From Acidimicrobiia bacterium (GTDB taxonomy: Bacteria; Actinomycetota; Acidimicrobiia; Acidimicrobiales; JBBSGY01), in the NCBI GenBank assembly GCA_039812705.1, contig JBDIBA010000003.1, forward strand, positions 10,566 through 74,565: a stretch of 64,000 bases of DNA, given 5' to 3'. The position numbers and the translations under genes were made by a program. How positions within the stretch are numbered: position 1 is the stretch's first letter; each line of letters starts with the position of its first letter. The notes under the pieces were generated by a model. The model worked only from the letters and a program-made list of their open reading frames with translations. It was not told where the DNA came from and ran no database searches. This document shows, piece after piece, positions 13,218-59,944 of this stretch.

Positions 13218-14870
13218 TTAAGCGAGCTTGTTCCTTTGGTTGTCGACGCAGTGGGTCATTTGCTTGCCCTGAACGTCACGAGGACCGTTCTGGCCAAGGT
13301 TTGCAAGACGCTTCTCGTCTTCTTCGGTGAGGTTCTGGTTGCGAAGTGGCTGCATCCCCTGAATGTCATTCAGTGAAACACCAATGCCATCACCGACTCG
13401 CTGGCCGAGTTCGTCATCGACTAGGTAAAAGTGCCAAACCATGCGCTCTTGGACGTTGCGCGCGGCCTGACCAATCAGGTCGATGAAGTTTGCAACAAGA
13501 TCATCGCGTTCCCACTGCTGCATAAGGCGAAAACGCTCGCCTGCTTGCTTGTAGTCATTAGTGCGTGGCAAGCGCGCGCGGGTGAGACGGCCTTCAATGA
13601 CCGGACCCTGCTCATCGTGCGTTGGGTAGTCGGCCTCGCGCAATCCGCCGGTGATAGACGGTTCGTAATTGACGTGAGGGTTGTCGCCCATTGCATCAAC
13701 ATGCATTGCCATTTGACCATCACGCTGATTTGTTGCGACGCGCGCATTCTTTGGTTGGTTCACCGGCAACTGCAAATAGTTTGGTCCAACGCGGTAACGC
13801 TGCGTGTCGGAGTACGAAAACGTGCGACCAACAAGCATCTTGTCGTCAGAAAAGTCCAAACCATCAACAAGCACGCCGGTTCCAAACGCAATTTGCTCGG
13901 ACTCCGCAAAGAAATTGTCGGGAACCTTGTTCAGAACAATCTTTCCAATTGGCTTTGCCGGAAACTGGTCTTCGGGCCAGGTCTTGGTGTCATCGAGTGG
14001 ATCGAAATCAAGTTCCGGGTGTTCGTTGTCGTCCATCATCTGCACGCGCAATTCCCATTCAGGGAAGTCGCCGTTTTCAATGGAGTCGTAAAGGTCTTTC
14101 GTAGCGTGTCCAACGTCTTGGCCCTGCTGCACCGCGGCATCGGCTTCGGTCATTGAACTGACGCCGGCCTTTGGAACGAAGTGGTACTTCACAAGCTTTG
14201 TTTCACCTGACGCATTGACCCACTTGTAGGTGTTAACGCCGAAGCCTTCTTGCGTGCGGTAGTTAGCCGGAATGCCACGCGGGCTGAACAAGTTGACCAG
14301 CATGTGCATTGACTCTGGCGTTTGGCTCATGAAGTCAAAAATGCGTGCAGGGTCTTGCCTAAAGGTGATGGGGTCTGGCTTTAGAGAGTGAATGACATCT
14401 GGAAACTTGATGGCGTCGCGAATGAAAAACACGGCCAGGTTGTTTCCAACCAAGTCCCAGTTGCCGTCTTCTGTGTAGAACTTGACTGCAAACCCGCGAG
14501 GGTCACGAGCAGACTCGCTGGAGTCACGTCCACCAATCACGGTTGAAAAGCGAAGTGCAATGTCGCTCTTCTTTCCCTTGCTTTGGAAAAGCTTTGCGCG
14601 TGTGAAGTTGGCAATCGGCTCATCGCCCCACTGACCGGTGGCCTCGAAATAGCCCATGGCAGTAACGCCGCGAGCGTGAACTACGCGCTCTGGAATGCGC
14701 TCACGATCAAAGTGACTGATCTTCTCGAGGAACTGGTAGTTCTCAAGAGTTGCCGGGCCGCGCGCGCCAACGGTGCGCTGGTTTTGGTTGTCGTAGACAG
14801 CGTGACCTTGACGGTTGGTCAAAACCTCGCGATTGTCGTTTGACGGATTCTGACGCGCATTGCCTGCCAT
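13218..14870 (-). CDS. katA: Monofunctional haem catalase
   Basis: [15 protein letters not shown] (distal His), [14 protein letters not shown], and RxFSYxDTQRYR with the proximal Tyr. 550 aa. Confidence 0.95.
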
Positions 14871-25752: not shown

Positions 25753-26066
25753 CGACGACGCTCCTAGGGGATTTTTTATAAAGAAATAAGTAGAGGTAGT
25801 AGGTGCTGTGGATTGTGGACAAGGGGTTGAAATCCCTGGACGACAGCAGTTTTTGGCTGCGCACTTTCTCCACAGCGTTCCACAGACATGTGACACCGTG
25901 CTGAGCGAGCCGTTTTCCGCAGTGGTTATCCACATATATCCACAGGGATTTCCACTGGAAAACTCACCGGCTTTTCCACTGGTTTCACCCAGCTTGTAGC
26001 CACGCTTTGTGGTGAATTGCTTGTATTTGGTTGTTTGAGTGCTGTTTCTGAGCGGTCGAGCGGTTG
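25753..26066. other. oriC: the dnaA-dnaN intergenic DnaA-box cluster plus an AT-rich candidate unwinding element
   Basis: Boxes: TGTGGATTG 25807-15, TGTGGACAA 25814-22, TTCTCCACA 25866-74, CGTTCCACA 25876-84, perfect TTATCCACA 25926-34, ATATCCACA 25936-44, TGTGGTGAA 26008-16. The AT-rich ATTTTTTATAAAGAAATAAGTAGAGGTAG lies at 25771-25799. Confidence 0.85.
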
Positions 26067-27584
26067 TTAGCTGCCGGACTTCACGCGGTGCATCAACGCC
26101 GTCACTTGGTTGAAGATGTGGCCGCGCTCGAACATCATGGCCGTGATCTTTTCGACGGCATGGATGACCGTTGTGTGGTCTCGGCCCCCGAATTCGCGCG
26201 CGATGGCCGGGTATGAAAAGTCTGTTACCTCTCGGAAGACGTACATGCCTATTTGACGCGCAGTCACCAACGGCCTTCGGCGACTTGCGCCACATAGTTC
26301 TTCGACCGTGAACCCAAACATGTCCGCCGTGGCTTTCAGGATGTCTTGAGGAGTGATGGTTTTCGGCTTATCGCCAGCGCCGACAAGGTCAGAGAGGACA
26401 ACTTGGGCCGTTTCTACGGTGAGTTCTTCGCCGTGGAGGTTTGAGTATGCCGAGACGCGGATGAGGGCGCCTTCTAGCTCCCTGATGTTGTCTGTTACAC
26501 CTGATGCAATGAACTCCATGACGTTGTCCGGAACCCTGGTTCGCAGGCCATCGCCCTTCTTGCGGAGAATTGCGATTCGAGTCTCCAAATCGGGCGGCTG
26601 GACATCTGTGGTGAGACCAGAAAGGAACCGGCTGCGGATTCGTTCTTCGAGGGTCACCAGCGATTTGGGGTGACGGTCTGACGAAATGACGATCTGCTTC
26701 GATGCGCCATAGAGGTGGTTGAAGGTGTGGAAGAACTCCTCCTGGAGGCCTTCCTTTTGCTTCATGAATTGAATGTCGTCAATCAACAACACGTCGCATT
26801 CGCGGTATCGCTGTCTGAAAGCGGCTCCGGTGTTGGTGCGAATGGACTCAACGAACTCGTTCAGCATGCGCTCGGTACTCACGTAGTGAACGTGACGGTG
26901 GGGAAAGTTTTCGCGGACGTAGTTGCCAATGGCGTGAAGGAGGTGTGTTTTTCCTAGACCCGCATCGCCGTGGATGAACAAGGGGTTGTAGGACTTTGCC
27001 GGCGATTCAGCGACCGACAGCGCAGCGGCGTGTGCAAAGCGATTGGAAGCACCGATGACGAAGTTCTCGAAGGTGTAATCCCAGTTCAGTGGGGAATCTT
27101 GCGACGGACGAGGCGGCGCTGGGATTGTTCGGCCTGAAAGGTGATCTGGCCTTTGTGGAACCTTTGGCTGAAACGAGTTCCCAACCTGCGGCGCCGCGTG
27201 GGGGTTCATTTGTGGGGTCATTGATGGTGCCAAATGTGGCGCCATTTGGGGGTTCTGAACTGCTCCTTGTTGAGCAAAGTCAACGTAGGGCGCGGAGTCG
27301 GTGACTTCATCAAGCAGTTGACCCTGTTGTACTGCTGCGTAAAGCGAAATGGACATCTGCTTGTTGGCGACGTCTGTGACTACGTCGTTGACGAGGTCGA
27401 TGTACTTCGCCTCGATGCGGTCTTTGATGAGAGAGCTTGGAACGGTAATGACTAATTCGTCATCCTCAAGGGAGCGCGCCTCGGCTTGACCAAAAAGCAT
27501 GTTCCAGGTGGCTCCTGACACGCGTTCATGAAGAGCCTCTGAACAGCTTTTCCACAATGTCTCGGCCTCTGTTACCAGCGCCAT
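26067..27584 (-). CDS. dnaA: Chromosomal replication initiator DnaA
   Basis: AAA+ Walker A GDAGLGKTHLL, Walker B LLIDDIQF, and the C-terminal DNA-binding helix DHTTVIHA. Has a Gln/Pro-rich domain II linker. Confidence 0.98.
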   Translation of the reverse strand: MALVTEAETLWKSCSEALHERVSGATWNMLFGQAEARSLEDDELVITVPSSLIKDRIEAKYIDLVNDVVTDVANKQMSISLYAAVQQGQLLDEVTDSAPYVDFAQQGAVQNPQMAPHLAPSMTPQMNPHAAPQVGNSFQPKVPQRPDHLSGRTIPAPPRPSQDSPLNWDYTFENFVIGASNRFAHAAALSVAESPAKSYNPLFIHGDAGLGKTHLLHAIGNYVRENFPHRHVHYVSTERMLNEFVESIRTNTGAAFRQRYRECDVLLIDDIQFMKQKEGLQEEFFHTFNHLYGASKQIVISSDRHPKSLVTLEERIRSRFLSGLTTDVQPPDLETRIAILRKKGDGLRTRVPDNVMEFIASGVTDNIRELEGALIRVSAYSNLHGEELTVETAQVVLSDLVGAGDKPKTITPQDILKATADMFGFTVEELCGASRRRPLVTARQIGMYVFREVTDFSYPAIAREFGGRDHTTVIHAVEKITAMMFERGHIFNQVTALMHRVKSGS

Positions 27585-27818
27585 CCCCTCCCCTTAAGAC
27601 ACGAGATCCACAACCTCGTCCACATGTGTGGAAAAACATACAAACCAAACGAGAGCCATAGGTGTAACCCCAGCTCACAGCCGTGGATAGCTGTGGAAAT
27701 TCCGATGCCCCGAAAGAAGTTCACGAAAGTAGCACCGTAGGTTTGCCAGTGAAACAGGCGATTTAGGGTTGTGCGCTTGGTTCTTAGGGCCGCTGCTGTT
27801 TGCTAGTATTCGCGCCTT
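27585..27818. promoter_or_regulatory. Divergent dnaA/rpmH promoter region with a second DnaA-box cluster
   Basis: Boxes: AGATCCACA 27604-12, TCGTCCACA 27616-24, TGTGGAAAA 27627-35, CGTGGATAG 27682-90, TGTGGAAAT 27692-700. A TAGTAT -10-like hexamer lies 9 nt upstream of the rpmH ATG. Confidence 0.7.
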
Positions 27819-29445: not shown

Positions 29446-30369
29446 ATGGAATGGGTTGAAACCACGGGTTCATCGGTTGAGGCTGCAAAAAGCCAGGCCT
29501 TAGAGCAGCTAGGCGTCGATGAAGCCGATGCTGAGTTCGATGTTGTAGCTGAACCAAAGGCGGGGCTGTTCGGATTTCGTAAGGTCGAAGCACGGGTACG
29601 AGCCCGTGTGAAGCCCAGTGTTCCTCGTTCAAAGGAAACGGGTCGCCGCAAGAGTCGTCGTAATGATCGCGGTAGGCCGTCAGAGCGTTCTGCGCAGCGT
29701 GCCTCCACACCGCGCGAAGAATCCGCGGAAGACGCCTCGTTTGGTTCCGATTCACATGCGGGTCACGGCGACGGCGTTGACAGGCGCTCATCTGATGACC
29801 GCCGCAAGCCTCGCAACAGACGTCAGCGACCAAACAAGCCAGGCGGAGACGCTCGCAATTCCGGAGCCAAACAAGGAGACAATGAGTTGGAAACCGTAGC
29901 CCTAGAAGACCAGGTCAAGACCCTTGAAGAGTTCCTCAACGGCTTGTTTGCTGAGATGAACACACCTGCAAGTGTGAAGTCCGAGATTGACTCCGAAGAG
30001 GAGCTGATCAAGGTTTCAATCGAAGGCGACAACCTTGGGCACCTCATTGGTTTGAGGGGTAACGCACTTCACGCGTTGCAAGAAGTGACTCGAACTGTTG
30101 TTCAGCGTCAGACCGGTGCACGTAACGGCAAGATCATTCTCGATGTGGCTAAGTACCGCGAGAAGCGCAAGGCCGCGCTAGAGCGCTTCACGAAGGACCT
30201 TGCTCGCGAGGTTGTCGAGAAGCAGGTTGAGCGCAACCTTGAACCAATGCACCCGGCTGATCGCAAGATTGTTCACGACACCATCAACGAAATCGAAGGT
30301 GTTGAAACCAGTTCAGCAGGCGAAGAGCCACGTCGTTACGTGGTGATCAGGCCTGTGCGGAGTGCATGA
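29446..30369 (+). CDS. jag: Jag/KhpB RNA-binding protein (Jag_N-KH-R3H) with a long Arg/Ser-rich insertion
   Basis: N-terminal Jag_N (VETTGSSVEAAKSQALEQLGV), C-terminal KH (GHLIGLRGNAL) and R3H (RKIVHDTI...EGEEPRRYVV). About 130 aa of basic low complexity lies between them. Confidence 0.88.
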   Translation: MEWVETTGSSVEAAKSQALEQLGVDEADAEFDVVAEPKAGLFGFRKVEARVRARVKPSVPRSKETGRRKSRRNDRGRPSERSAQRASTPREESAEDASFGSDSHAGHGDGVDRRSSDDRRKPRNRRQRPNKPGGDARNSGAKQGDNELETVALEDQVKTLEEFLNGLFAEMNTPASVKSEIDSEEELIKVSIEGDNLGHLIGLRGNALHALQEVTRTVVQRQTGARNGKIILDVAKYREKRKAALERFTKDLAREVVEKQVERNLEPMHPADRKIVHDTINEIEGVETSSAGEEPRRYVVIRPVRSA

Positions 30370-30997
30370 ACTGGTTGACCCGAGCCTGCATCGCCGATTG
30401 GTGCGGGTTCTCGAAATCAGCAAGGACCGTGGCTTTCTTGGGCCCGGTCCTGTTGAAGACCACGTCGCACATGCCGCGGCGTTCCTTGAAGTACTGGGCG
30501 ACCTGAATCCCAAATCGGTTGCCGATCTCGGTAGCGGCGGAGGCATCCCCGGCCTCGTCCTGGCTGCCGCGCTCCCCTCTGTTCGCTTCGCATTGATCGA
30601 CGGCATGGAGAAAAGAACGACCTTCCTCAACGAAGCTGTCGATCTGCTTGGTCTGACGAATACAGAAATTGTTTGTGCCCGTGCCGAGGAGCTTGGTCAC
30701 AATGCTGCCTACCGGGAGACTTATCAGATGGTGGTTGCCCGCTCATTTGGGCCTCCCGCCGTGCTTGCGGAGTGCGCTTCTCCCCTGTTGTTACCCGGCG
30801 GAACCCTGATTGTGTCGGAACCCCCACACTCTGAGGCCGATCGTTGGCCTGCGAGTGGCCTGGCCAAGTTAGGTCTCCGCAAGGTGGAAACTGTGCGCGT
30901 AACGGGAGTACGCCTGGCCATCTTGGAAAAGACTGCTCCCCTCGATTCGCGCTGGCCTCGCCGCGTTGGAATCCCCGCGAAGCGCCCAGTCTTCTAA
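30362..30997 (+). CDS. rsmG: 16S rRNA (guanine527-N7)-methyltransferase RsmG
   Basis: SAM motif DLGSGGGIPGLVLA, ARAEE and VVARSF motifs. Canonical position before parA. Confidence 0.93.
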   Translation: MHELVDPSLHRRLVRVLEISKDRGFLGPGPVEDHVAHAAAFLEVLGDLNPKSVADLGSGGGIPGLVLAAALPSVRFALIDGMEKRTTFLNEAVDLLGLTNTEIVCARAEELGHNAAYRETYQMVVARSFGPPAVLAECASPLLLPGGTLIVSEPPHSEADRWPASGLAKLGLRKVETVRVTGVRLAILEKTAPLDSRWPRRVGIPAKRPVF

Positions 30998-31049
30998 GAC
31001 TTCTCTTGCGGCGTGGGTGCTGCGGGCGCTGCTACCTGGACAATGGGAA

Positions 31050-31065
31050 TGTTTCACGTGAAACA
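31050..31065. promoter_or_regulatory. parS site 1 (TGTTTCACGTGAAACA)
   Basis: Exact match to the canonical 16-bp parS consensus. Confidence 0.95.
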
Positions 31066-31100
31066 TTCCCATTGGAACTCGGACTGGTTGAGCAATCAGA

Positions 31101-31116
31101 TGTTTCACGTGAAACA
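31101..31116. promoter_or_regulatory. parS site 2
   Basis: Exact match to the canonical 16-bp parS consensus. Confidence 0.95.
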
Positions 31117-31152
31117 TCTGGCTTCCCTCGTTACCTAGAAAGGACGTGCGAA

Positions 31153-31168
31153 TGTTTCACGTGAAACA
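31153..31168. promoter_or_regulatory. parS site 3
   Basis: Exact match to the canonical 16-bp parS consensus. Confidence 0.95.
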
Positions 31169-31216
31169 TTCGCACTGTCGTAACTACCGGGCTTCAGGTG
31201 GGATATTGGCCCGAGA

Positions 31217-31232
31217 TGTTTCACGTGAAACA
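31217..31232. promoter_or_regulatory. parS site 4
   Basis: Exact match to the canonical 16-bp parS consensus. Confidence 0.95.
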
Positions 31233-31278
31233 TCTCGGGCCTGAAACTGGCTGTGCGCCTTCACCCGAACCAGAGGAA

Positions 31279-31294
31279 TGTTTCACGTGAAACA
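31279..31294. promoter_or_regulatory. parS site 5
   Basis: Exact match to the canonical 16-bp parS consensus. Confidence 0.95.
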
Positions 31295-31340
31295 TTCCTC
31301 TGGTTTCCGGATGGCTCGATGCGTGAAAACTTGCTCAAGA

Positions 31341-31356
31341 TGTTTCACGTGAAACA
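31341..31356. promoter_or_regulatory. parS site 6
   Basis: Exact match to the canonical 16-bp parS consensus. Confidence 0.95.
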
Positions 31357-31405
31357 TCCCAATGTCTCACTCAGCCTGTAGCGTGCAGCGCATGAGGATT
31401 CTCCG

Positions 31406-32170
31406 ATGACGCGGATACTTACCGTCGCGAACCAGAAAGGCGGGGTGGGTAAAACCACAACCGCGGTCAATCTTTCTTCGGCGCTTGGCGAGGAGGGAAA
31501 GCGAGTGCTTCTCGTTGACCTGGACCCCCAGGCAAACGCCACCACGGGTGTGGGGGTGGACTCCGAAAAGATCGATAACTCCACATACGACCTGCTTCTA
31601 GGGGACTCAGAGCCTGCTGAGTGTGTCGTAGAGACGATCTATCCGAATCTCTGGCTCGCTCCGGCAACTATTGATTTGGCTGGCGCAGAGGTAGAGCTCG
31701 TTTCCGAGCTTGCCCGCGAGAATCGCCTCAAGAATTCCCTCGCCAAGGTCTCAGACCAGTATGACTTCGTCATTATTGATTGCCCTCCGTCATTGGGACT
31801 GCTGACAATCAATGGCTTCATTGCAGCTAGGGAAGTCTTGTTGCCCATCCAGTGCGAGTACTACGCGTTGGAGGGTGTCGGGCAGCTGGTCCAGAATGTC
31901 GACCGTATTCGCAGCGCTTTGAACCCTGAGCTGCACATCAGCCACGTCTTGCTGACCATGTACGACGCACGTACGAAGTTGTCATCGCAGGTCTCGCGAG
32001 ACGTCAAGCAATTCTTTGGTGATCGTCTCTGTAAGACCGTCATCCCAAGAAGCGTCAGGCTCTCTGAGGCGCCGTCATACGGACAGCCAATTTCAGTGTT
32101 CGATCCGCTTTCACGCGGTGCCGGCGCGTACCGCGACTTGGCTAAGGAGGTCATCGATGGCGAGGCGTAG
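31406..32170 (+). CDS. parA: Chromosome partitioning ATPase ParA (Soj)
   Basis: Deviant Walker A, VANQKGGVGKTTT, then DLDPQANAT and IIDCPPSLG. Confidence 0.96.
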   Translation: MTRILTVANQKGGVGKTTTAVNLSSALGEEGKRVLLVDLDPQANATTGVGVDSEKIDNSTYDLLLGDSEPAECVVETIYPNLWLAPATIDLAGAEVELVSELARENRLKNSLAKVSDQYDFVIIDCPPSLGLLTINGFIAAREVLLPIQCEYYALEGVGQLVQNVDRIRSALNPELHISHVLLTMYDARTKLSSQVSRDVKQFFGDRLCKTVIPRSVRLSEAPSYGQPISVFDPLSRGAGAYRDLAKEVIDGEA

Positions 32171-33047
32171 TGGTCTTGGTAAGGGTCTGGGCGCCCTGAT
32201 TCCCGCAGGGGAGCCCGTGGCAGACGGATCGGCCACCTTTAAGACGGTCCCGATCAAGTCGATTGTGCCGAACACATTTCAGCCTCGGCGACACCTTGAC
32301 GAGAAAGATCTTGCGTCCTTGGCCGCATCGATCAAGGAAGTCGGAGTTCTCCAACCTCTGCTTGTGCGTCCACAGGCCGGGGGAGAAGGCTACGAACTGA
32401 TCGCAGGTGAGCGGCGTTGGAGAGCTTCTAAGCAAGCTGGGCTTGATCAGGTGCCCGTAATTGTCCGCACCAGCCAGGACAACGCATCGCTTGAAGAGGC
32501 GCTGGTCGAGAACCTTCACCGACGAGACCTCAATGCCATTGACGAGGCCGCTGCTTACCAGCAGTTGATTGATGATTTTTCAATGACACACGAGTCTGTT
32601 GGCAAGCGTGTCGGAAAGAGCCGCACTGCGGTGAGTAACTTGCTGCGCTTGTTGAGTCTGCAGCCAAAAGTTCAGCGCTTGTTGATTGAAGGTCACATCA
32701 CAGAGGGTCACGCTCGCGCCTTGCTAGGCACTACCGACAAGGCGTTCCAGGGACAACTTGCCGAGCGAGCTGCTCGCGATCAATGGTCCGTGCGCGCCGT
32801 GGAAGAGGCCGTCAAGGACCGACATGGGGCAGTGGTCGATGTCACGGAACGGACCAAGTCAGCTCCGACAAAACAAGACGCTCCCGCCTTAGAATGGCAA
32901 GAGCGTCTTGTTGACTATTTGGACACCAAGGTGACCGTATCGGGCGGGGCGAAGAAGGGGAGAGTCACGATTGACTTTGCCGGCCCAGAGGATCTGGAGC
33001 GCATAGCGGACCTAATTCTCAAGGCTCCTAAGCGCGCGAAAGCCTAA
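32157..33047 (+). CDS. parB: Chromosome partitioning protein ParB (Spo0J)
   Basis: Start taken at MARRSGLGKGLGALI (ATG 32157, 14-nt overlap with parA). Has the CTPase/ParB box LIAGERRWRAS and an HTH region. The track ORF start (32016) lies inside parA. Confidence 0.93.
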   Translation: MARRSGLGKGLGALIPAGEPVADGSATFKTVPIKSIVPNTFQPRRHLDEKDLASLAASIKEVGVLQPLLVRPQAGGEGYELIAGERRWRASKQAGLDQVPVIVRTSQDNASLEEALVENLHRRDLNAIDEAAAYQQLIDDFSMTHESVGKRVGKSRTAVSNLLRLLSLQPKVQRLLIEGHITEGHARALLGTTDKAFQGQLAERAARDQWSVRAVEEAVKDRHGAVVDVTERTKSAPTKQDAPALEWQERLVDYLDTKVTVSGGAKKGRVTIDFAGPEDLERIADLILKAPKRAKA

Positions 33048-43456: not shown

Positions 43457-44222
43457 TTCCGACTCCAGTTGCTCCGCTCCGGCGAGCGATGAAGTTAGTT
43501 CATCAACAGACGCCGCGATTCTTCGCGTAGCAACTTTCAACACACTTAACGGACAGGTGCATCGAGGTAAACACAAGCACTATTTCAAGGGGCCAATTCG
43601 TGTGAATGACTTGGTTGAAAGTGTTTGTCAGTTTGATGCCGACATTGTTGGACTGCAGGAAGTTGACAGGCGTACCGTGCGCACGCGCTTTGCGAATGCA
43701 GTCAAACGCGTGGCGCGTCGAACTGGACACTTCGCAACGTTTCGTCCGTCGCGTCGACACTGGTTGATTGGGCTGTTTGGCAATTCGCTTGTGACTCGCC
43801 AACGTCACCACAACGTGCAAGTTGTGAAGCTGCGACGCTTGCATTGGCGTGAACAGAAGCGGACTGCCTTGTTCGCAACTGTTGAACACAATGGTGTGCC
43901 TGTGCGTGTAGCGACAACGCACTTGTCTTCGCGCAGGGACGAAAGCGCAATTCAGTTGCCGCAGATATTTGACGAGATGACACGTCATCGCGGGCCCGCA
44001 CTCATCTTTGGTGACATGAATCTGCGCCCTCATGAGGCGCTTCCGGTGTTTGAGTCTGCCGGGTGGACTGTTGTTGAAACTGGTCCGACGTGGCCCTCTT
44101 GGGACCCGTCATTGCGAATTGACTATATCGCCGTGCGTGAAATGCAGCCCGTCACTGCGCGCGTTCAGAAATGCAAGGTCAGTGACCACTGCGCGATCGT
44201 TGCCGAGCTCGTTGTGAAATAG
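43446..44222 (+). CDS. Endonuclease/exonuclease/phosphatase (EEP) family protein
   Basis: RVATFNTLNG, IVGLQEV, and the C-terminal SDHCAIV catalytic His motif. The exact start is uncertain. Confidence 0.8.
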   Translation: MNDISDSSCSAPASDEVSSSTDAAILRVATFNTLNGQVHRGKHKHYFKGPIRVNDLVESVCQFDADIVGLQEVDRRTVRTRFANAVKRVARRTGHFATFRPSRRHWLIGLFGNSLVTRQRHHNVQVVKLRRLHWREQKRTALFATVEHNGVPVRVATTHLSSRRDESAIQLPQIFDEMTRHRGPALIFGDMNLRPHEALPVFESAGWTVVETGPTWPSWDPSLRIDYIAVREMQPVTARVQKCKVSDHCAIVAELVVK

Positions 44223-44249
44223 AAAAGGCCCCGCAATGCGGGGCCTTTT
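44223..44249. terminator. Bidirectional rho-independent terminator between convergent EEP and ino1 genes
   Basis: AAAAGGCCCCGC-AAT-GCGGGGCCTTTT: a perfect 8-bp GC stem flanked by an A-tract and a T-tract. Confidence 0.85.
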
Positions 44250-44259
44250 CTGCATACTG

Positions 44260-59390: not shown

Positions 59391-59417
59391 CGAACCGCGA
59401 AAAGTCAGCAAACAAAA

Positions 59418-59446
59418 ACCCGCTGCCCAAGTTGTAGGCAGCGGGT
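59418..59446. terminator. Bidirectional terminator between convergent trpS and a CD225 gene
   Basis: ACCCGCTGCC-(9 nt loop)-GGCAGCGGGT, preceded by AAAAA on the + strand. Confidence 0.7.
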
Positions 59447-59459
59447 CTATTAACTTGTG

Positions 59460-59906: not shown

Positions 59907-59944
59907 GAAAAGACCCCCTTGCGTAACCGCAAGGGGGTCTTTTT
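59907..59944 (-). terminator. Rho-independent terminator downstream of CD225 paralogue C
   Basis: AAAAGACCCCCTTGCG-TAAC-CGCAAGGGGGTCTTTT: a 12-bp GC-rich stem with U-tracts on both strands. Confidence 0.85.

Follow-up and report, generated by a model that had tools for sequence, protein, structure and literature searches.

In the F plasmid, sopC is made up of tandem 43-bp repeats, each of which carries an inverted-repeat SopB site. On chromosomes, multiple intergenic parS sites close to the origin are established in actinobacteria, an example being the ten sites of Corynebacterium glutamicum (PMC7083940). Together with the parS pairs that precede parA in Streptomyces and Mycobacterium, the C. 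glutamicum cluster is among the known systems closest to the element described here, an array of six parS sites in the spacer between rsmG and parA. The array lies in a 64-kb stretch of contig JBDIBA010000003.1 from an Acidimicrobiia bacterium (the whole stretch is referred to below as the window, and positions are counted from its first letter). It resembles the actinobacterial parS clusters in its 16-bp consensus, in its intergenic and origin-proximal place near parAB, and in having several identical sites. In addition, each of its cores is the centre of a longer perfect palindrome with arms that are private to that site, a feature to which an earlier note, made from the sequence, had drawn attention. 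We propose that these arms arise, and stay perfect, through template switching by fold-back, with the 18-bp core common to all sites as its seed, an explanation that we judge to have about an even chance of being right.

Results

The 16-mer TGTTTCACGTGAAACA occurs six times in the window, starting at 31050, 31101, 31153, 31217, 31279 and 31341, and each copy matches the 16-bp parS consensus TGTTNCACGTGAAACA exactly. Allowing up to two mismatches gave no further match in the 64-kb window, and the two near-matches with three mismatches are both outside the array. With these consensus matches and with Pfam-identified neighbours, the sites are true parS sites, located between rsmG and parA as the earlier note had supposed. 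All six share the 18-mer ATGTTTCACGTGAAACAT without variation, and around each core lies a perfect palindrome of 20-38 bp that has no spacer (Table 1). The array is dense, with six sites within 318 bp of a single spacer and 47 bp between site 6 and the start of parA, and the centre-to-centre distances are 51, 52, 64, 62 and 62 bp. The six-site description in the earlier note, including the identity of the 18-bp core, the palindrome lengths (34, 24, 30, 34, 38 and 20 bp) and the spacings, was reproduced exactly from the sequence. So was the alternation of the first flanking bases, which on the left read GAATG at sites 1, 3 and 5 and AGATG at sites 2, 4 and 6. The right flank of site 6 is CATCC instead of CATCT, and for this reason its symmetry ends at 20 bp. 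At site 3 the symmetry resumes with GAC/GTC past a 1-nt bulge, as a quasi-palindrome over 31143-31179. A degenerate half-site, GCGTGAAAAC, is also present in the spacer at 31322-31331.

Summed over the six sites, 36 consecutive complementary pairs extend past the shared 18-mer. All of them are Watson-Crick pairs, with no wobble pair, mismatch or bulge among them. When left and right flanks of different sites were paired with each other only ~0.28 matches per position were obtained, which is the chance baseline, and set against 36 consecutive pairs this puts the probability that the arm symmetry is due to chance at ~1e-20. The symmetry is also sharply bounded, since complementarity just outside the palindromes is at background (8/36, 22%), with the exception of site 3 past its bulge. 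The length of the arms beyond the core varies from 1 to 10 and shows no favoured size. In local alignments of the inter-core segments, compared with shuffles, significant similarity was found only as inverted matches, which are the arms themselves, and there was no direct homology between units outside the core. The arms are accordingly unrelated to each other yet self-complementary, as the earlier note had claimed, and because they differ from site to site their symmetry does not reflect sequence-specific recognition, a second point on which the note was borne out. Arm positions co-vary across the six sites themselves: treated as paralogues, they have 21 cells in which both sides changed, whereas shuffling gives 10.6 +/- 2.8, none of 500 shuffles reached 21, and in controls with slid partners the pairing fell to ~40%.

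Symmetry of this kind could in principle be inherited, from one ancestral palindromic unit or a REP or MITE element that was duplicated six times, or it could be produced by faulty assembly. Some duplication in the past is hinted at by the GA/AG alternation, and there is weak likeness between some flanks (9/14 between the left flanks of sites 1 and 5, and 8/14 between the left flank of site 1 and the right flank of site 3). However, a copied unit cannot yield six different perfect palindromes with arms that differ by site. No copy of an arm, a core or a half-site was found elsewhere in the 64-kb window and there was no plasmid match, so that the dispersed MITE or REP family, which the earlier note had named as a possible refutation, did not appear. 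No Rfam family reached its gathering score in the spacer, where the generic hairpin matches were all below threshold. The suggestion of the note that the array expanded by duplication of a two-site unit has little in its favour. Strict alternation has a chance of 2 in 20, there is no spacer homology, and the spacing does not follow an a-b-a-b-a pattern. A MAFFT alignment of the three putative units was suggestive by eye, but the shuffle-tested local alignments were without direct homology and the duplication was therefore set aside as unsupported.

Exact-protein look-ups with ParA or RsmG retrieved contigs that had been assembled from other samples of the species and were 99.7-100% identical to the window. 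These conspecific contigs include L081, L086, L091, L092, L094 and L096 (L-numbers denote the loci and contigs used for comparison). L091 is identical to the window, and L081 and L086 cover the entire array with point differences only. The array is thus not an assembly artefact, since independent contigs of the same species reproduce it. We regard inheritance, a mobile repeat or an artefact as a very remote prospect and as already largely refuted.

The conspecific contigs also show that the spacer is variable. It contains 7 variable positions in 408 bp, compared with ~18 in ~7.4 kb of flanking DNA, and within-species polymorphism is at least 7-fold denser there than in the genes on either side. 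Nor are the arms better protected than their surroundings, with 1 single-nucleotide polymorphism in 72 nt of arm against 4 in 228 nt of inter-palindrome DNA. In two contigs a C>T change at 31118 breaks the symmetry of site 2, while a G-U pair is kept in the plus-strand RNA. Three contigs have a degraded core at site 6, owing to TG>CT at 31341-31342. This dinucleotide variant switches site 6 between perfect and imperfect symmetry and, although unpolarised, appears from its sequence to be the type of event that template-switch "correction" produces. The window carries the symmetric allele at all of the polymorphic palindrome positions (3/3). Contig ends of short-read assemblies also fall in the palindromes: eight conspecific contigs start and one ends inside the 38-bp palindrome of site 5 (31268-31305), and three (L092, L094 and L096) end inside the 34-bp palindrome of site 1 (31041-31074). 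A de Bruijn graph is expected to break in this way at a perfect palindrome that exceeds the k-mer.

We surveyed perfect parS sites in two further sets of loci, the first with 63 sites in 80 diverse parA loci and the second with 322 sites in 120 metagenome loci, for which the presence of two parS sites close together had been the only selection criterion. Sites with at least seven extra complementary pairs per arm were counted as extended. Extended sites made up 6/63 of the first set (~0 expected from flank-swapping) and 19/322 of the second (0.8 expected). When mismatches were allowed, at least 7 of 10 flank positions were paired at 42 of 372 distinct sites, as against 7 expected. Overall, private extended arms are found at 6-11% of ~370 perfect parS sites compared with an expectation of <2%, and the arm sequences differ at every extended site surveyed. 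Private arm extension around parS is general but weak across phyla, and the present array is its extreme case; this cross-phylum recurrence had not been part of the earlier note. Other loci have at most two strongly extended sites each, and large arrays, such as L123 with 15 sites, are mostly unextended. Imperfect extended stems also exist (~10/42, with pairs counted over the first 10 positions).

Two lines of argument were tried on the survey data and abandoned. The absence of pairing beyond the first mismatch was considered as proof of discrete events, but averaging had diluted the signal and ~10/42 of the extended stems are imperfect. A control on palindromes without parS was confounded and not used, as the long ones among them are hairpins under selection in their own right, and the parS counts had been distorted by de-duplication. 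A further structure, at L155:1152-1219, is a 68-bp perfect palindrome centred on a parS site, with a left arm that starts precisely where the adjacent parS ends. The palindrome is 56 nt from a contig end, and could be either a real inverted duplication or a hairpin artefact of assembly.

Outside the species itself, the searched collections contain no relative with more than ~60% protein identity. The nearest ParA among GTDB species representatives is from Acidimicrobiia, at 62% identity, in a scan of species-representative contigs that was saturated by the generic P-loop pattern. The nearest RsmG outside the species has 58% identity, and among 5.8 billion proteins no RsmG homologue was found between 99% and 58%. 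In these distant Acidimicrobiia, parA is preceded by one or two parS sites of the plain kind. Change in the arms between close pairs could nevertheless be followed in other lineages. In L145 a 32-bp perfect palindrome surrounds a site that shows no extension in six orthologues. L107 differs from L126 and L215, on a 95% identical background, by two clustered changes that separate a bulged quasi-palindrome from a perfect one (unpolarised). At one shared site the perfect arms of L209 are entirely unlike those of L216, and there is also an insertion with its start at the core edge. Exact reverse-complement arms with discrete ends, one mark of template switching, are present at our array. Clustered change confined to one arm, another such mark, is seen here only as the unpolarised dinucleotide of site 6, with analogues in L145, L107 and L209/L216.

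Two further observations were made on these loci. The L145 array belongs to a family of orthologous three-site arrays with 39-bp spacing upstream of a gene with a GTG start (L100, L119, L133, L136, L145, L154, L171 and L182). In this family the spacers beside the middle site are hypervariable, the surroundings being 92-99% identical, and the middle site is inside the 32-bp perfect palindrome only in L145. Lone half-sites (ATGTTTCACGC and ATGTTTCACAC) stand beside full parS sites in the orthologous arrays at L209:12640-12920 and L216:7350-7630. Such half-sites could be what is left of full sites, or else precursors that fold-back copying completes.

The main rival to a mutational origin of the arms, with which it is compatible, is selection for hairpins in RNA. 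Read-through from the rnpA-rsmG string would fold into six hairpins that terminate, pause, insulate or protect mRNA ends; insulation would then precede the ParB-loading zone and the parAB promoter, and the parS core would be a handy seed for a hairpin. Site 1 starts 44 nt past the stop codon of rsmG, and there is no other hairpin to end that operon. The predicted RNA hairpins of sites 1-6 (-23.2, -13.7, -23.7, -29.3, -29.9 and -8.9 kcal/mol) are more stable than the core alone (-5 kcal/mol), and the C>T variant at 31118 retains a G-U pair on the plus-strand RNA. Some of the surveyed extended parS sites are plainly terminators, in which a T-run follows right after the end of a gene (L027, L061, L105 and L151), and between L114 and L151 there is a compensatory T-A to C-G change in a stem that is followed by a T-run.

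Several results speak against this explanation. A terminator scan of 30300-32300 found no plus-strand U-tract after any of the six hairpins, and the sole terminator-like tail was weak, on the minus strand, and at site 3. By comparison, the window holds three clear intrinsic terminators (Table 1) with perfect stems of 14-16 bp, which show that the organism uses U-tract terminators. Six tandem hairpins also far exceed the needs of termination, the 36 extension pairs are free of wobble pairs, mismatches and bulges, and polymorphism in the arms is no lower than in the neighbouring spacer DNA. In the survey, T-tracts accompany only a minority of extended sites (3/11 of those in the high-GC class, with no enrichment in other GC classes). 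A canonical terminator role for the six hairpins accordingly finds no support, as they have no U-tracts and differ in this from the terminators of the same window. A weaker role in pausing, insulating or protecting ends is one that the folded hairpins may have. Taken together, we consider selection on RNA as the source of the arms to be unlikely, while giving it more weight than any other rival. Of the two options that the earlier note had put forward, a mutational mechanism that extends palindromes fits the sharp Watson-Crick arms and the lack of U-tracts better than a hairpin of the terminator type.

In Streptosporangiales and other high-GC actinomycetes we also noted parS sites at the tip of a G+C-rich perfect palindrome of 30-40 bp, downstream of parB or after a stop codon. 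These terminator-like hairpins are without a T-tract (L024:3205-3244, L029:6083-6114, L032:6513-6542 and L061:7503-7534).

The six parS centres (31057-31349) are in helical register, a feature that the earlier note had not mentioned. At 10.4 bp per turn the resultant R is 0.94, and ~0.2% of random spacings are as good as those of the array (P ~0.002). Neighbouring sites are 5 or 6 helical turns apart, and bound ParB dimers would therefore lie on the same face of the DNA. This arrangement is geometric, and any effect of it is putative. Phasing was also found in two other dense metagenomic arrays, L123 (15 sites, 1044-2027; R = 0.66 at 10.4) and L149 (4 sites, 13459-13622; R = 0.95 at 10.6), whereas some short arrays with spacings of 22-29 or 39 bp are not phased.

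Phasing bears on a further alternative, namely selection at the level of DNA. The four long palindromes, at 30-38 bp, are of a size at which extrusion can occur, and in the negatively supercoiled origin region they could form cruciforms or single-stranded hairpins that modulate the loading or sliding of ParB, take up supercoils, or attract structure-specific proteins. That the sites are helically phased agrees with such a role, and symmetry with zero spacer and Watson-Crick pairs only suits DNA rather than RNA structure. On the other hand, sites 2 and 6, at 24 and 20 bp, fall short of the length that extrusion requires, arm lengths range from 1 to 10 without preference, and alleles that break the symmetry segregate in the population. 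Most large parS arrays elsewhere, such as the 15-site array of L123, lack arms of this kind, and the searchable literature holds no link between ParB and cruciforms. This makes DNA-level selection an improbable source of the arms.

The genes around the array are those of a chromosomal partition locus close to an origin. On the minus strand the window carries gyrA, gyrB, recF, dnaN and dnaA, and on the plus strand rnpA, yidD, yidC, jag and rsmG, followed by the spacer, parA and parB; trxA, trxB and a Ser/Thr kinase gene, all convergent, come after parB. ParB has its N-terminal, HTH and C-terminal domains (Pfam ParB_N, HTH_ParB and ParB_C) and a CTP-binding motif, GERRWR, at residue 131 of the long open reading frame. 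No sigma-70 consensus promoter was found by a scan of the spacer. DnaA-box-like 9-mers (TTGTCCACA, at most one mismatch) are clustered on both sides of dnaA, at 25814-25934 and 27548-27635. These clusters lie in the dnaA-dnaN and rpmH-dnaA spacers and are candidates for oriC, which would place the likely origin 3.4-5.2 kb from the array.

Table 1. Coordinates of the parS array, its genes and other features of the window
Feature	Position	Strand	Description
parS site 1	31041..31074	no strand	34-bp perfect palindrome CAATGGGAATGTTTCACGTGAAACATTCCCATTG; 18-bp core 31049-31066
parS site 2	31097..31120	no strand	24-bp perfect palindrome CAGATGTTTCACGTGAAACATCTG
parS site 3	31146..31175	no strand	30-bp perfect palindrome
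parS site 4	31208..31241	no strand	34-bp perfect palindrome GGCCCGAGATGTTTCACGTGAAACATCTCGGGCC
parS site 5	31268..31305	no strand	38-bp perfect palindrome AACCAGAGGAATGTTTCACGTGAAACATTCCTCTGGTT
parS site 6	31339..31358	no strand	20-bp perfect palindrome, shortest extension
rsmG-parA spacer	30998..31405	+	408 bp, whole array inside; GAGGA 7 nt upstream of parA ATG
Variable spacer positions	31013, 31118, 31197, 31319, 31328, 31341-31342		conspecific contigs
rsmG (gidB)	30362..30997	+	Pfam GidB 1.2e-26; last of the rnpA-yidD-yidC-jag-rsmG string
parA, Walker-type partition ATPase	31406..32170	+	Pfam AAA_31 2.8e-65, also CbiA and ParA families
parB, 296 aa	32157..33047	+	ATG 32157 behind AAGGAGG; overlaps parA
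dnaA	26067..27584	-	array ~3.5 kb away
Intrinsic terminator	44221-44251	bidirectional	perfect G+C-rich stem, A- and T-tract flanks
Intrinsic terminator	59416-59448	minus strand	perfect G+C-rich stem, A/T-tract flanks
Intrinsic terminator	59908-59943	bidirectional	perfect G+C-rich stem, A- and T-tract flanks

Discussion

The locus has the features of a chromosomal ParABS system, namely the 16-bp consensus, a ParA, a ParB with HTH and GERRxR box, and proximity to the origin. With six consensus parS sites immediately in front of parAB and within a few kb of dnaA and oriC, the array is, judging from its sequence, very probably the chromosomal centromere of an uncultured Acidimicrobiia-like actinobacterium, and the place where ParB is loaded. 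The six sites would nucleate CTP-dependent ParB clamps, and ParA would then segregate the partition complex. Since the array is only 47 bp from parA, its occupancy by ParB probably also influences the transcription of parAB.

The mechanism that we propose for the arms starts from the core. During replication, the perfect 18-bp core would enable the nascent strand to fold back on itself and use its own opposite arm as template. Copying would overwrite the flank with its exact reverse complement, up to an arbitrary point at which the strand switches back. Repeated events would lengthen and re-perfect each palindrome independently of the others, and arms that are sharply bounded, of Watson-Crick pairs only and mutually unrelated are therefore what such independent events are expected to leave. 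Tightly bound ParB could promote fold-back by stalling replication forks. The resulting hairpins may be tolerated, or may be of secondary use in the read-through transcript of rsmG.

In other systems such template switching is an established mechanism. Template switching at quasipalindromes is stimulated by DNA-protein-crosslink agents that stall replication (PMC7202029), perfect stems can be created or repaired by template switching in one event (PMC8794818), and in yeast template switching expands inverted repeats at the sites of dimeric transcription factors (PMC13100816). A description of template-switch palindrome growth at bacterial centromeres was not found in the searchable literature, nor was anything relevant on extended palindromes, cruciforms or stem-loops at parS. 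The observations that we count in support of a mutational origin are the abrupt bounds of the Watson-Crick arms, the lack of homology between units, the polymorphism of the spacer, the recurrence across phyla, and the abrupt differences between relatives.

The proposal should be interpreted with some caution, as several points weigh against it. The collections hold no ancestor-descendant pair for the array, and a template-switch event at this locus is one that we infer. The polymorphisms in the array and the change between L107 and L126/L215 are unpolarised. Four of the six sites are strongly extended, as against a base rate of ~6-11% (binomial probability ~2e-3 at ~11%), and a neutral process alone does not explain why this lineage is so extreme. 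The canonical terminators of the same genome also have perfect stems of 15-16 bp, and perfection alone therefore does not exclude selection. The T-run terminators at L027, L105 and L151 imply that selection for RNA hairpins acts at least sometimes. Finally, both the binding of ParB and the stalling of forks by ParB are presumed.

A wider generalization can be offered tentatively. In it, parS sites would be self-extending palindromes, with the ParB-occupied core as a hotspot of fold-back, and private arms would be grown, lost and regrown across phyla. In the phased array described here the process would have reached nearly all sites. Half-sites would perhaps be where some sites originate, and the hairpin- or cruciform-prone DNA may have been co-opted for the loading of ParB or for the insulation of parAB from transcription upstream. 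This is possible, and we hold it with less than even confidence.

Whichever of these explanations is correct, the arms have consequences beyond this locus. If they are mutational, parS would report naturally, and across whole genomes, on template-switch mutagenesis where a protein binds a palindrome, and perfect covariation in a stem would by itself be no proof of selection, which bears on analyses of RNAs and of operator sites. If they are functional, non-B DNA or RNA hairpins would form a previously unconsidered layer in the loading of ParB or in the regulation of parAB. In either case, the dense and phased array is a compact natural substrate for comparing core-only with extended sites, and for the effect of phasing on the loading of the ParB-CTP clamp. 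There is a practical side as well, as perfect palindromes that exceed the k-mer of the assembler split short-read assemblies right at the centromere.

Among the systems with which the array can be compared, those known for quasipalindrome mutagenesis (the quasipalindrome hotspots of E. coli, RNA stems, and transcription-factor sites in yeast) are alike in having exact arms with discrete ends, and in the palindrome of a dimeric protein. Multi-nucleotide changes that restore symmetry are known in those systems (PMC7202029, PMC8794818, PMC13100816), and the unpolarised dinucleotide variant of site 6 may be such a change. For the array no ancestor-descendant event is documented. Intrinsic terminators are alike as stable stem-loops just past an operon, and in L027, L105 and L151 a parS site forms the tip of a terminator. 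They differ in having U-tracts, whereas the hairpins of the array are without U-tracts and stand six in a row.

The sopC region of F and the array have in common tandem palindromic sites for proteins of the ParB family, at distances of roughly whole helical turns. However, the units of sopC are direct repeats that include their spacers, whereas in the array both spacers and arms are unrelated, the sites are 5 or 6 turns apart, the location is chromosomal and the parS sequence is canonical. Uniform direct repeats like those of sopC were not found in the array, where the inter-core segments are without significant direct homology and the spacing is 51-64 bp. Among chromosomal systems, the Streptomyces loci in our comparison (L016-L026) have two sites upstream of parA without extension of the arms, unlike the array. 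In C. glutamicum, the sites are spread over 35 kb, while the six sites of the array are contained in 318 bp, are helically phased, and lie in private palindromes of up to 38 bp.

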